Source: Chrysomallon squamiferum (Eukaryota; Animalia; Mollusca). From it: a DNA stretch of 64,000 bases. Shown piece by piece: positions 682-49,322 of the stretch (within the stretch, counting starts at the first letter, position 1; each line of letters opens with the position of its first letter). Position numbers and translations under genes: made by a program. The DNA is taken from positions 17,298,001-17,362,000 of the forward strand of contig CM022678.1 in assembly GCA_012295275.1 (NCBI GenBank), read 5' to 3'. The notes under the pieces were generated by a model, which worked only from the letters and a program-made list of their open reading frames with translations, ran no database searches and was not told the origin of the DNA.

Positions 682-3600
682 ATGACGGAAGTTGAATTAA
701 AAATATCCCTGGTGATAATTCTACTGTTTATTTTATCGCAGACAGGTAAGTGTGTTTGAATTATTTAAACATGTGTTTAAGTCTGTGCACGTGTATTGTG
801 TTTTAAAGTGAAGTGTGTGACCGTTTGTTCGTATGTTTGTGTGCTTGGGTCTCTGTGTGATGCGCGCTCGAGCTTATGTGTATATTTGCGCGGGTGCTTG
901 TGTGTATGTATGTGTGTACTCCCGTGCTTGTGTTTCTTTCTGAATTAGAAACATTTAATATTTACGCCACATAAAATAAATGACTTCATTAATTTTGTGT
1001 TAAAAATGACCAGACAATCTAATGAGAAAACTGGGACAGGAAAACACGGGATTGAGAAAATTAAATTGTAAAGTTGGTAGTTAAGTATAAATAAATAAGC
1101 ATCTCTCTCTCTCTCTCTCTCTCTCTCTCTCTCTCTCTCTCTCTCTCTCTCTCTCTCTCTCTCTCTCTCTCTCTCTCTCTCTCTCTCTCTCTCTCTCTGT
1201 GTGTATGTATATATATATATGTGTGTGTGTGTGTGTGTGTGTTTGTGTGTGTGTTTGTGAGTGTGTGTCTGTCTGTGTGTGTGTGTGTGTCCGTCCGCGT
1301 GACATATAAATAGATGTATATTTATAGATAATTTTATATATCTATATATATATTCTGGTACCGGACCAATTATCCGGACTCCTTGGGGCCTGAGCCATAC
1401 CGCATTTCTGGTACCAACGCATCTAAACACTTAAATAATCAGGTATAAACATAAAGAAAATTGACGATATACAACTGTGGCGACTCGATACGTAAACAAT
1501 GCGGCGAGTGAATGAATGCCACGCGGCTTGTAAGAGTAGTTCTGTTGTGGTGAGGACAAAACACGCGCGCGTCAACTATAAACAAAGCTTTATTTAGTTT
1601 CTGTTTGAGGAGCGATCGGAATAAAATCTGTTTGAATGGAACATATTAAGTCGTATCTTTGTGCTTATTGTATGAACGTTATGTCGTATTGCAAAACACA
1701 GCGTCTGATTCCGGTCAGAAGTGCCCTGTGTAGCCTGCACCTCGTTATGGATCACCTGTTATGTTTCAATGTTTTACTCTCAACGAGATTTTTCTACAAA
1801 CTTTCTACCTAAAAACAGACTCAACCAAACAAATTTTCAGTCTCTTGTAATTATTTTTGTATCTAGTATAAATGTTTTTGTTTAACGAAAGCGGTAGCAA
1901 ACCTGTGTGAAAACCTTTCGTAAAGTTTCTTCAGTATTTACGAGCAAAGGACTCTTTTAATAAAAACATCATCAGAAAGAGCAATTTTTACATAGTTGTT
2001 TTCCTCGCAGTTTTCAAAACCGAAATTTAAACCGCTATCTTTACGCACTGACTGAATGACGGATGGACGACAACGACGGAGACAAACGACGACATCAGTT
2101 CTATAAAACCTCAAGTAATCTGACAGGATTTAACTTAGGCAAAAATTAGTCATAAATAAATAAAAAATAAAAAATAAAAAATATAAATAAATAAATTCAA
2201 TTACTCAAAAAATAATTTTATAACTAGATGTATCCGTGTATGCCTGTATTAGTGTATGTATATATGTATATATTTATGCATGTATGCATGCATGTTTTAT
2301 ATGCGTTTTTGCTTGTGTATGTATGTATGTTTAAGTTTGTATGCAAATATTTGCAATATGGGTGTCTGAATGTATGTGTGTATATATGTATGAATGTGTG
2401 TATGAATGTGTGTAAGTATGAATGTATGTTAGAATGTATGAATGTATAATATGAATGAATGCATTTATTAATGTATATATGTATGTGTGTTTATGTTTCT
2501 GTGTAAATATTTACAGTGTGTTTATATGAATGTGTATATTTGTCCGTTTATATGTTAGTTTGTATATATAATAATGCTAAATATAATGTTTCTTCAACTT
2601 GTTCAGTTTCAGTTAAGAGTTTCGCATGTAAAGACAACTCAGCGCTATGTTCCCCCCAAAACTGCGAGCAGGAAAGCGAAATGGACTGTATGAAGACTTG
2701 TCACGTTTGTTCAGGTAAAGTTACCAGTGTTCCAGCAGGGCAAGGTCAACAGAAGCAGGATAGATACAACAGATAGCTCATATGTTAATAACGATACATA
2801 CACAGTATAGTTGATATGTCCAGTAATGATAATTCACAGTATAGTTGATATGTCTAGTAACATAGATACACAGTATAGTTCAAATGTTAAGTAAGGATAG
2901 AAACTTAGGATAGTTGATACGTTAGTAAAGATATATATATATACAGGATAGCTGGTGCATTATGTAAGCATAACTAGGATAGACGAATGATACACATGTG
3001 AGATAGGATAGATACCAGATAGGAACGAATATGTTAGGAGGGATATGTGCAGAATAGAAGCATACTAGACATTTTATTCAGAATTCCATGACAGTAGACA
3101 TATTTTACACATGATAGATACCCATGATAGATACGCATAATAGCATACAAACGAAAGTTATGTATTCGGCAGGATAGCTTGTATAAGTAGGATATGTGTT
3201 CAGGTTACAGCTATGTTAAAATACGATTGATGGATACACGTAATACTTGGCATACGAGTATACTAGATATATTTGAAATATATATATATATATATATATA
3301 TATATAACGTAAAGGCTGGCAGTTTAATTTTGAGAGTGTACACATACACATACGAACATGGACACACCAAATGCAACACAGTCACAAAAACATGAACATT
3401 TTTAATTTGTGTTACTAAATATAACGATTTTTCTTTTTGTAGTCATGCATACTGAGACACACTATTTCTATTTTAATTTCAGTAAGTCAATATAGTTAAT
3501 TTCGTTTACGCGTGCACCCAATCCTTGTATCTACTCTGTGAGTTTATCTTTTAATTACTGCAAATGTGGTAAAAGTGCACACACACCATCCTATATTTCT

Positions 3601-47800: not shown

Positions 47801-49322
47801 AAAAAATATATATATATATATATATTTTTTTTTTTTTACAATTTTATTTGATCTCCATAACAGACTTGTTCAGTTACCATACAAATTATTGTCATTAAGT
47901 TGATAGTTGACGAATCCCGAATCACTACGTTTAACACGACCGTGATTGCAATTAACAAAAATAATTTTTTCTTGAACCAGCTAAATTTTATGTCTGTATG
48001 CTTTAAATTATATTTAAACGTATAGACCTACATAATCTGGGAGAATGTTTGGAGGCGGGTGATTGTTTAGAGGCTTCTACAAGTGTTTGACAGCGTAGTT
48101 GCTTTAAGCTCTAATTTCTCTGTGTTTTACTATATTTAAAATATTGCTATTTCTAAAAATATGTTTATGAAAATAGTTTCTTCTCGGAATTTTACGAAAC
48201 TGTTTCATAAAAGTTTTTTACCGCTTTCGGTAAGCAAAAACACAAAAACATTTATCTTCGATACACAAATGACGCCAAGAGCCTGAAGATTTGTTTGGTT
48301 GAATCTGTTTGTACGACGAATGCTTGTAGAATAACCCGATCAACTTGGAAGGTTCAAACATAACAGGTGATCCATAACGAGCTGGCGGTTACCCAAGACA
48401 GTTCTGACTGAAATCAATCTCTCTGGTTCGCAATACGAGATAACATTCACGCAGTAAGCACAAAGACACGACTTAACATTTTACATTAGTGCAGTTTTTA
48501 TTCAGATCGCTGCTCAAACAGAAACTAAATAAAGCGTTGAAAAGTCAGTTTAAATATTTGAAACCAGTATGACGGGTTACTAATACAAGCACTTTGGAAT
48601 ATCTTATACATACAATATATATAATTTTAGTTGCTATTGTTATTATAATAGAAATATAAATAAAAATAATAAGAAAACACAATAACGATAAAACAAATTA
48701 TAAATTATATAAAAATAACAGGAAAAAATAAGTAAAAAAAACTATATATATTTAAATTATTTAATTTAGGAACACAGATCCTGATGACCGATAATTGTGT
48801 TTTCATAATCAGATATACGTATATAGAAATATATAGATAATGATATATATTATATTTTTTAAATACACTCGGCGTATTAATATATTTACATCTGATATAT
48901 ATATTATAAATTGTGTGGAATGTAGATTTATACTTAACTACCGAGTTTACGATTTAATTATCTCAATGCAACGTTTTCTTGTCCAAGTTTTCTCATTAGA
49001 GTGTCTGGTTATTTTTAACACAATACAAATCAGTTAAGATTTTATGTGGTCTAAGAATTAAACGTTTCTTACATAATTCTGAAAGACACACACGCACGCG
49101 AGTACACACATAAACACAAGCACACATACACAGAAGAAAGCAAACACACACAAACACAAGGGCATGCACATACGCTCACACAGTCACACACCTCACATAC
49201 AAACACAACACACGTGCGCAGACTGAATAACAGTTTTAAAGAATTCAAACACACTTACCTGTCTGCGATAAAACAAACAGTAGAATTATCACCGGGGACA
49301 TTTTTAATTCAACTTCCGTCAT
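38808..49322 (-). CDS. Receptor-type protein tyrosine phosphatase, copy C (ShKT-EGF-TM-PTP); three indels, so a pseudogene or mis-assembled
   Basis: Exons (-): 49322-49259, 46630-46523 ([28 protein letters not shown]), 45694-44596 (1099 nt, +1 at ~44802), 43968-43869, 43451-43345, 42895-42462, 42076-41989 (KNRY), 41310-41234, 40898-40764, 40597-40472, 40281-40122 (160 nt, -1 in the G run at 40150-40154), 39496-39361 (SAGVGRTG), 38888-38808 (+2 in a GA run, early stop). All splice sites are intact. Confidence 0.82.

Follow-up and report, generated by a model that had tools for sequence, protein, structure and literature searches.

Receptor protein tyrosine phosphatases (RPTPs) with an extracellular array of EGF-like repeats are common in molluscs, and their link to immunity is known in snails. 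In Biomphalaria, the EGF-array SudRes1 receptor PTPs are linked to schistosome resistance (PMC12297450); similarly, the MEGF/galactose-binding receptor-like PTPs of LG5R subgroup 1C lie at a parasite-resistance locus (PMC13712769). According to the available parts of these two reports, both groups resemble the genes described here. That is, they have a signal peptide, multiple EGF repeats, one transmembrane (TM) helix and a cytosolic PTP region, and they form clusters of paralogues with extracellular diversity, EGF loss, gene presence/absence and a region that is hard to assemble. More than 40 RPTPs are higher in oyster agranulocytes (PMC13070813, in the part available), and Draper is triggered by phosphatase exclusion (PMC6219719, likewise).

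The 64-kb window (the whole stretch of Chrysomallon squamiferum DNA analysed here) carries three full-span copies (A, B and C, 13 exons each) and two 5' fragments (D and E) of a ShKT-like/EGF-array receptor PTP gene. An earlier note on this DNA had counted three full-span and two partial paralogues; the count stands, except that the partial copies are cut by an N-gap and the full copies carry lesions. Copies A, B and C encode, in this order, a signal peptide, a 108-nt six-cysteine exon, an EGF-like array, a TM helix and one PTP domain. Their splice sites are canonical apart from the lost exon 9 donor in B. The signal peptide of exon 1 was read by eye, and the TM helix of exon 4 was called from hydropathy (KD19 2.6-2.8). 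For exon 13 of copy A, a candidate at 11011-11130 was dropped; 11361-11525 was preferred, as it carries the end of the Q-loop. The features are (positions within the window):

682-11525, forward strand: copy A, 13 exons; one extra nucleotide in exon 6 as assembled
682-745, 2607-2714, 3633-5021, 5553-5652, 5953-6047, 6494-6940, forward: copy A exons 1-6
7337-7424, 8533-8609, 8891-9025, 9499-9624, 9886-10046, 10748-10883, 11361-11525, forward: copy A exons 7-13
2607-2714, forward: copy A exon 2, compact ShKT-like, six Cys, spacing 6-4-7-3-2
3633-5021, forward: copy A exon 3, MEGF-type array
5553-5652, forward: copy A exon 4, TM helix
7337-11525, forward: copy A exons 7-13, single PTP domain
14811-14853, forward: copy D exon 1, signal peptide
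17950-18057, forward: copy D exon 2, frame open, splice sites kept, first three Cys lost; intron 2 enters the gap
18578-18777, no strand: scaffold gap of 200 N, centre of the inverted arrangement, cutting both D and E
20046-20088, reverse strand: copy E exon 1, signal peptide; intron 1 enters the gap
23354-34257, reverse: copy B, 13 exons; exon 9 with one extra nucleotide and no donor as assembled
34215-34257, 31906-32013, 30100-31095, 29359-29458, 28869-28975, 28008-28459, reverse: copy B exons 1-6
27531-27618, 26486-26562, 26075-26210, 25536-25661, 25104-25264, 23993-24128, 23354-23518, reverse: copy B exons 7-13
31906-32013, reverse: copy B exon 2, ShKT-like, with a Pfam ShK match below cut-off
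30100-31095, reverse: copy B exon 3, MEGF-type array
38808-49322, reverse: copy C, 13 exons; frameshifts in exons 3 and 11
49259-49322, 46523-46630, 44596-45694, 43869-43968, 43345-43451, 42462-42895, reverse: copy C exons 1-6
41989-42076, 41234-41310, 40764-40898, 40472-40597, 40122-40281, 39361-39496, 38808-38888 (to first stop), reverse: copy C exons 7-13
46523-46630, reverse: copy C exon 2, ShKT-like, K-I where K-T is expected

What is new at this locus is the ShKT-like tip combined with a single PTP domain. In the available parts of their descriptions, SudRes1 and LG5R 1C have a galactose-binding/fucolectin tip of their own, two PTP domains and antistasin gene neighbours, whereas the copies here have a 28-residue ShKT-like tip, one PTP domain and an EGF array held in one exon. 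No galactose-binding/fucolectin domain was matched by Pfam on exons 2-3, and the RNA joints between exons 1, 2 and 3 leave no room for one. The term 'ShK' has no occurrence in the main texts of PMC12297450 and PMC13712769, the tip with a single PTP is absent from the 19 homologues of the array (see below), and literature searches found no characterised ShKT-EGF-TM-PTP receptor. This agrees with the earlier note, which knew of no characterised receptor of this kind; its novelty is nevertheless confined to the tip and the single PTP, as snails are already known to have both the EGF-TM-PTP body and its link to immunity (PMC12297450, PMC13712769, as far as available).

Exon 2 is 108 nt long in phase 1-1, as had been proposed, with the cysteine spacing 6-4-7-3-2 in A, B and C. 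The frame C-x-D ... C-x-K-[TS]-C-x2-C is exact in A and B, reads K-I in C and is absent in D; the full ShKT pattern once ascribed to every copy thus holds for A and B, E having no assembled exon 2. A relaxed ShKT regular expression matched three times in the window and never in 100 base shuffles, and a DNA pattern built from the copies hit four sites in the window, all of them exon 2. Three weak-to-moderate sequence tests (Pfam, ESM Atlas and a search of 1.84 billion proteins) support the ShK likeness. In Pfam, ShK (PF01549) is the only family matched by any of the four exon-2 peptides: copy B aligns over the whole profile at 12.9 bits (E 0.17), below the gathering score of 20.9, and A, C and D gave no match. 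In the ESM Atlas, 22/30 exon-2 matches belong to clusters with ShK-bearing proteins (in the best cluster, 11% of the members have it; score 0.94). The protein search returned three matches, only one of them full-length, namely a Pfam ShK repeat protein (P0022) in which all six Cys align with exon 2 at 45-50% identity; P0020 and P0021, which are repetitive and aligned over short parts only, were dropped. Moreover, the exon-2 profile scores 12.2 bits on the ShK repeat versus at most 4.0 on 19/19 EGF-array homologues. The disulfide pattern of ShK is 1-6, 2-4, 3-5, and the predicted structure of exon 2 (a low-confidence model, pLDDT 62) has a helix at 21-30. A fold search with this model gave no match; such negatives carry no weight because a Pfam-confirmed ShK repeat folded alone also failed to match ShK. 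A PDB sequence search with the exon-2 profile had 0 matches, and metagenome scans yielded 0 relatives among 429 pattern matches and 0 matches to the exon-2 DNA pattern, thus no orthologous locus in another species. Exon 2 is probably a compact ShKT domain.

Similar short domains exist elsewhere. The peptide AsK132958 (PMC5793123, in the part available) and the P0022 repeats share the six-Cys frame, the C-x-D start, the C-x-K-T-C-x2-C end, the short length and the lack of a Lys-Tyr dyad. They are secreted peptides or repeat proteins, whereas the exon-2 domain is single and sits at the tip of a receptor phosphatase; its C3-C4 loop has 7 residues, that of P0022 has 10. The gastropod CAP-ShK type II proteins also mix poorly recognized ShKT domains with EGF-like domains in a mollusc, but are secreted CAP proteins (PMC6409789, in the part available); 'phosphatase' has 0 occurrences in the main text of that paper.

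The whole EGF-like array is encoded by the single exon 3, which spans 462 aa in A (80 Cys, ~14 units of 32-33 aa, 17 N-glycosylation sequons), 331 aa in B (56 Cys, ~10 units) and ~365 codons in C. The copies differ in stalk length by whole repeat units, so the variable-length stalk of the earlier note, like its 330-460 aa array, TM helix and one PTP, is borne out. Pfam matches on exon 3 are weak (EGF_TEN, E 0.007), and the ESM Atlas returned EGF_laminin clusters in which Mollusca are commonest. Homologues of exon 3 include 19 MEGF-type proteins at E<=1e-10; all 15 named ones are molluscan and 6/19 are EGF-array PTPs. These homologues place the gene only in Mollusca and lend no support to the white body, once suggested as a candidate tissue. 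The six bivalve EGF-array RPTPs (P0001, P0007, P0008, P0012, P0017 and P0019) show 30-37% identity over the EGF exon and 40-46% over D1, and four of them share the WPD-loop form D-K-x-[VI]-P with the copies here. They differ in that all six keep the WPD proline and carry a second PTP domain, and none has an ShK match or an exon-2-like segment.

The PTP exons match Y_phosphatase, four of them above cut-off; the Pfam check suggested earlier is clear for this domain, while ShK stays below threshold and EGF is weak. The KNRY loop, HCSAGxGR and the Q-loop are present in exons 7-13, and we take these to be the motifs of classical (class I), tyrosine-specific PTPs. Copy A has an intact [10 protein letters not shown], an altered WPD loop and a ~35-aa tail with two tyrosines, the genomic sequence reaching a stop ~35 aa past D1. 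In all three copies the WPD loop keeps Trp and Asp, with Pro replaced by Arg or Met and Gly by Gln; phosphatase activity may be low, given that the WPD proline is replaced in A, B and C. Queries and a profile for a second PTP domain (D2) matched only the same D1 exons or noise in the window. Identity is 40-46% to molluscan D1 domains and 42% to an unrelated Ig/FN3 RPTP, so the PTP domain alone does not place the family; seven proteins were compared pairwise, and subfamilies do not come apart in the scores. Homologue searches gave 0/348 candidates with exon 6 and 1/3 with exon 9, the latter being the unrelated Ig/FN3 RPTP.

The gene family is transcribed, and exon 2 is spliced between the signal exon and the EGF exon, with at least one contig per joint among the joints listed. 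The RNA contigs come from one study with three samples and were compared with the copy A region only, up to 9200. Record 25 of X4 connects 628-742 to 2604-2714 (exons 1-2, one contig), and an X2 contig entering exon 3 has 18 nt identical to the end of D exon 2 (one mismatch versus B). Both joints are bridged by one contig each among those listed (beside 18 further joints), derived from other family members or alleles, so some transcripts may skip exon 2; the exon 1-2-3 junction check called for earlier came out positive. Contigs of family members also cover joints 3-4 (X1), 5-6 and 6-7 (X1, X2) and 7-8 (X1, X2, X4).

Amino-acid identity among copies is 57-63% in exon 2, 81-83% in exon 3 and 87-95% in the PTP. 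Exon 2 is the most divergent part of the gene, and divergence peaks in the loops between the fixed cysteines. Its dN/dS ranges from 0.41 to 1.31; the intervals contain or reach 1, and no value is significantly above 1. In exon 3 and the PTP it is 0.34-0.46 (values under 1 hold for exon 3 and, in the PTP, for the pairs B-C and A-C). The diversifying tip of the earlier note is thus found as variability, not as positive selection. Nucleotide identity is 73-79% in exon 2 versus 75-85% in alignable flanking introns. Because of this intron-like identity and a dN/dS interval around 1, relaxed constraint explains the divergence of exon 2 equally well. The copies also show mosaic exchange, and the cluster would evolve by birth and death, with copies duplicating, recombining and decaying.

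We slightly favour, at little better than even confidence, a spliced and transcribed family of single-pass receptor PTPs, likely an offshoot of the molluscan EGF-array RPTPs, whose likely ShK-fold, variable ligand-binding tip would bring an inhibitory phosphatase to the sites where the cell meets other cells or microbes. The 108-nt phase-1 exon, which sits where relatives have the galactose-binding domain, would have been gained by exon shuffling, and the second PTP domain would have been lost in the lineage. Tip binding and the length of the glycosylated stalk might then decide whether the phosphatase is kept in or squeezed out of the contact zone; its position might make responses driven by tyrosine kinases, for example engulfment through receptors of the Draper type, easier or harder to trigger. 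CD45 and Ptp69D are single conserved genes with tandem PTP domains. In a works-like comparison, they too carry a bulky glycosylated ectodomain on a PTP and could set the kinase-phosphatase balance at contacts; they differ in their FN3/Ig ectodomains and lack of a variable tip (PMC6219719, in the part available). The copies are likely to work as variable 'off-switch' recognition receptors, and an immune role of the cluster is plausible. A bolder version, which we hold only tentatively, has the ShK toxin scaffold recruited for recognition and diversifying in that role. Variable loops on its fixed three-disulfide frame would let a large family of inhibitory receptors, recombining among themselves, read the surfaces of self, symbionts or parasites, with a single-domain phosphatase as the output; read-through of the exon-2 donor might in addition yield a secreted form consisting of signal peptide and ShKT.

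Other readings of the tip itself have little to recommend them. We give scant credence to exon 2 being another six-cysteine module, e.g. a reshaped EGF-repeat junction: the sub-threshold Pfam score and the occurrence of C-x-K-T-C-x2-C at repeat junctions in some homologues would fit this, but the ESM Atlas clusters, the six-Cys alignment to the ShK repeat, the low profile scores on EGF homologues, the predicted helix and the separate phase-1 exon speak for ShKT. It also seems very unlikely that the tip acts as a tethered toxin, binding a potassium channel of its own cell or of a cell opposite and recruiting the phosphatase to it. The MMP23 ShKT domain does modulate Kv1 channels without the dyad (PMC6409789, in the part available), but the short AsK132958 was inactive on all Kv channels tested (PMC5793123, likewise). 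Here, the Lys-Tyr dyad of ShK-type channel toxins is missing (no Lys in the exon-2 C3-C4 loop), the domain is membrane-tethered, and its core is neutral to acidic (2-3 basic versus 5 acidic residues in A and C; 2 versus 2 in B). The earlier word 'toxin' therefore suits only the likely fold.

Classical RPTPs bind endogenous partners. A non-immune adhesion or matrix receptor in epithelial, neural or shell-forming tissue, with the tip bound to such a partner, would accord with ShKT domains in many non-toxin extracellular proteins (astacins, tyrosinases, MMP23, MFAP2; PMC5793123, PMC9848320, in the parts available). We judge it distinctly unlikely, as a fixed endogenous ligand is hard to square with a fast-changing tip, copies that turn over and mosaicism, and the closest described relatives lie at parasite-resistance loci (PMC12297450, PMC13712769, as far as available). 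Less improbable, though still doubtful, is the view that these genes form an ordinary subfamily of molluscan EGF-array PTPs in which the ShKT-like exon, its constraint relaxed, rides along as a passenger, the window's copies being decaying pseudogenes and any recognition resting with the EGF array. As assembled, the window has no intact copy and lesions mark 3/3 full copies: one extra nucleotide in exon 6 near 6556 in A; one extra nucleotide and a lost donor in exon 9, adjoining a CT repeat, in B; and three in C, where exon 3 gains one nucleotide near 44804, exon 11 lacks one near 40150 and exon 13 stops early. The three Cys missing from D, the K-I of C and the dN/dS and intron-like identity of exon 2 point the same way. 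Set against this, A, B and C preserve the six Cys, the Asp and the 108-nt frame at 21-27% nucleotide divergence, dN/dS stays under 1 for exon 3 and for the PTP pairs B-C and A-C, and exon 2 is spliced into RNA; the contigs listed at 6556 (one each in X1, X2 and X3) all lack copy A's extra base and are in frame there.

We know of no ligand for the molluscan EGF-array receptor phosphatases, which are candidate parasite-resistance genes, nor, to our knowledge, of a function for most non-toxin ShKT members. If the favoured receptor reading holds, a branch with its lectin tip swapped for a 28-residue ShKT-like module and its second PTP dropped would mean that these receptors can exchange one tip for another, and a receptor role would be added to the ShKT scaffold. 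Such a tip is small enough to synthesize, making ligand and specificity directly testable.

The copies are clustered on both strands, as the earlier note had described; the inverted layout may be an effect of assembly. Both D and E end at the 200-N gap (18578-18777), so their partial state may be an assembly effect too. In addition, the inverted arms may be alleles, which puts the locus count at 3-5. As a side observation rather than a copy number, 3053 contigs of run X3 matched, at most 32 of them at one exon-3 site, which hints at many more copies.

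The window holds three to five loci of a receptor tyrosine phosphatase (PTP) architecture that is real and transcribed, and that is apparently undescribed, being set on the body of a known molluscan receptor family. Six-frame translation and self-comparison of the window recover three long and two short homologous units. The full-span gene copies are A, on the plus strand, and B and C, in tandem on the minus strand; D (+) and E (-) are 5' fragments lying face to face across a 200-N gap. As a count of units, the three full and two partial paralogues of the earlier note stand; the partial status of D and E may be an assembly effect, both being truncated by the gap. 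Every full copy maps to 13 exons, which encode a signal peptide, a candidate ShKT tip (exon 2; 108 nt, phase 1), an EGF-like array (the single large exon 3) and a transmembrane segment. Next come a basic stop-transfer exon and an acidic juxtamembrane exon, in which the motif E-N-E-T-[VL]-Y-E-K-P is conserved; the remaining seven exons encode one PTP domain and a short tail bearing tyrosines.

The arms flanking the gap show 92-98% identity at substitutions across window 11-16 kb (at least 96.6% in five of six bins), dropping to about 80% or below at the 5' ends of A and B. This pattern fits two origins equally well: an inverted duplication of recent date, or two haplotypes that were joined head to head. 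In the latter case A/B and D/E would be alleles and the array simply tandem, which is why the number of loci is given as a range. Copy B is a mosaic, C-like from exon 4 to intron 5 (93-97%) and mostly A-like from intron 6 on (94-98%). Ahead of D and of E, the sequence 5' of exon 1 has a local duplication (13953-14735; mirror 20164-20946), and a portion of exon 1 recurs at 19855-19917.

As assembled, all three full copies carry lesions: one extra nucleotide in exon 6 of A; one extra nucleotide in exon 9 of B together with loss of that exon's donor, next to a CT repeat; and frameshifts in exons 3 and 11 plus a premature stop in exon 13 of C. In exon 6 of A, in-frame alternative AG sites lie downstream at 6546 and 6576 (no RNA support seen). 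The last exon of C is about 49 nt longer than that of A and includes an AG-ending pyrimidine run (38700-38760, -), so the family's 3' end may have one more intron.

Four sequencing runs (X1-X4) were found and mapped at 88% on window 600-9200; three of them are RNA libraries, all from a single study and available as contigs. X4 record 25 spans the exon 1-2 junction with 15 differences in exon 2, and thus derives from a different copy or allele. In X2, a contig reaches exon 3 behind 18 nt that match the 3' end of exon 2 in D perfectly (one mismatch to B). Exon 2 is therefore spliced into the transcript, as the proposal demanded, with one contig at each junction. Joints 3-4, 5-6, 6-7 and 7-8 are also present among those listed for this region. 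The extra base of A is absent from all three contigs listed at 6556 (X1, X2 and X3), which may be paralogue-derived. X3 is DNA-like, covering 30 of 30 bins, and as many as 32 of its contigs overlap at a single site, hinting at a larger family. One X1 contig, which may be pre-mRNA or DNA, continues past the exon-2 donor into intron 2 (2714-2862, +). Such read-through meets a stop within about 8-21 codons in four of four copies and, if used, would yield a secreted signal-peptide-plus-ShKT peptide. A short element in intron 1 of A (1357-1550) is deeply covered in each of the four runs and has many loose ends; it is likely a dispersed repeat.

The full ShKT pattern, earlier ascribed to each copy, does not hold for C (K-I instead of K-T) or for D (last three cysteines only). 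A relaxed expression matches three times in the window versus none in 100 shuffles. In Pfam, ShK is the sole family match for exon 2, seen in copy B only with a score of 12.9 bits, below the cut-off of 20.9. In the ESM Atlas, 22 of 30 matches fall in ShK-bearing clusters (score 0.94), ShK being carried by 11% of members in the best cluster. Against 1.84 billion proteins, an exon-2 profile found three matches, only one of them full-length: P0022, a repeat protein of the Pfam ShK family, which aligns with exon 2 at all six cysteines. The profile scored at most 4.0 bits on 19 of 19 EGF-array homologues, so by this test exon 2 is no EGF junction. The AlphaFold model (pLDDT 62) has a helix at 21-30; fold searches with it gave no match, and a true ShK control was likewise unmatched. 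Exon 2 is very probably a compact ShKT, for which AsK132958 offers a precedent; passages of PMC5793123 describe it as having six residues fewer than ShK and no activity on Kv channels. A module other than ShK is highly improbable given the profile scores and the P0022 alignment.

The exon 3 search returned 19 longer proteins, the named ones molluscan in 15 of 15, including six EGF-array PTPs. Pfam detected no ShK in the 15 exon-3 homologues scanned. All six EGF-array PTPs have two PTP domains, compared with one here. Four of the six share with our copies the form D-K-x-[VI]-P of the WPD loop (the general-acid loop); beyond this form, the copies here lack the WPD-loop proline. Receptors of this kind, with a galactose-binding tip and tandem PTP domains (the SudRes1 type), mark a schistosome-resistance locus in Biomphalaria sudanica, according to parts of PMC12297450, and recur in B. 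glabrata (PMC13712769, in part). Portions of PMC13070813 report more than 40 RPTP transcripts as higher in oyster agranulocytes. Searches of the open-access literature showed no receptor joining ShK/ShKT with a phosphatase. Without a galactose-binding domain and with a single PTP domain, the copies fall outside the strict SudRes1 type; the cluster receptors likely work like it.

Amino acid identity among copies is 57-63% in exon 2, 81-83% in exon 3 and 87-95% in the PTP exons, with dN/dS of 0.41-1.31 (wide intervals), 0.40-0.46 and 0.34-0.42, respectively. Changes in exon 2 fall in loops between invariant cysteines, a pattern compatible with diversifying selection without demonstrating it. The introns flanking exon 2 are about as diverged as exon 2 itself, as they would be if it were a passenger exon in a decaying cluster, a reading we consider unlikely. 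Exon 3 differs in length by whole 96- or 99-nt units (about 10, 11 and 14 units), and the stalk carries 14-17 N-glycosylation sequons in B and A. In the most probable mechanism, the tip binds a ligand on a surface; the glycosylated stalk would set the distance that keeps the phosphatase in contact zones or excludes it from them, and its position there would tune kinase-driven responses. Such exclusion has been demonstrated in fly cells, for a bulky PTP in Draper signalling (PMC6219719, in part), and by analogy may extend to this cluster. A non-immune adhesion receptor seems less probable than a passenger exon, and a tethered channel ligand is more doubtful still, as exon 2 lacks a Lys-Tyr dyad and its core is neutral to acidic.

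Other features of the window are as follows.
35661-35779, minus strand: 5S rRNA gene (113.7 bits), between C and B, among long microsatellites
62820-63555: a 50-bp unit repeated 14.7 times in tandem (97% matches)
About 59926-60225, minus strand: exon presumably resembling 40S ribosomal protein S8
About 54200 to 51475, minus strand: possible small secreted Cys-containing protein, whose signal-like exon lies near 54100 and whose open exon spans 51475-51771
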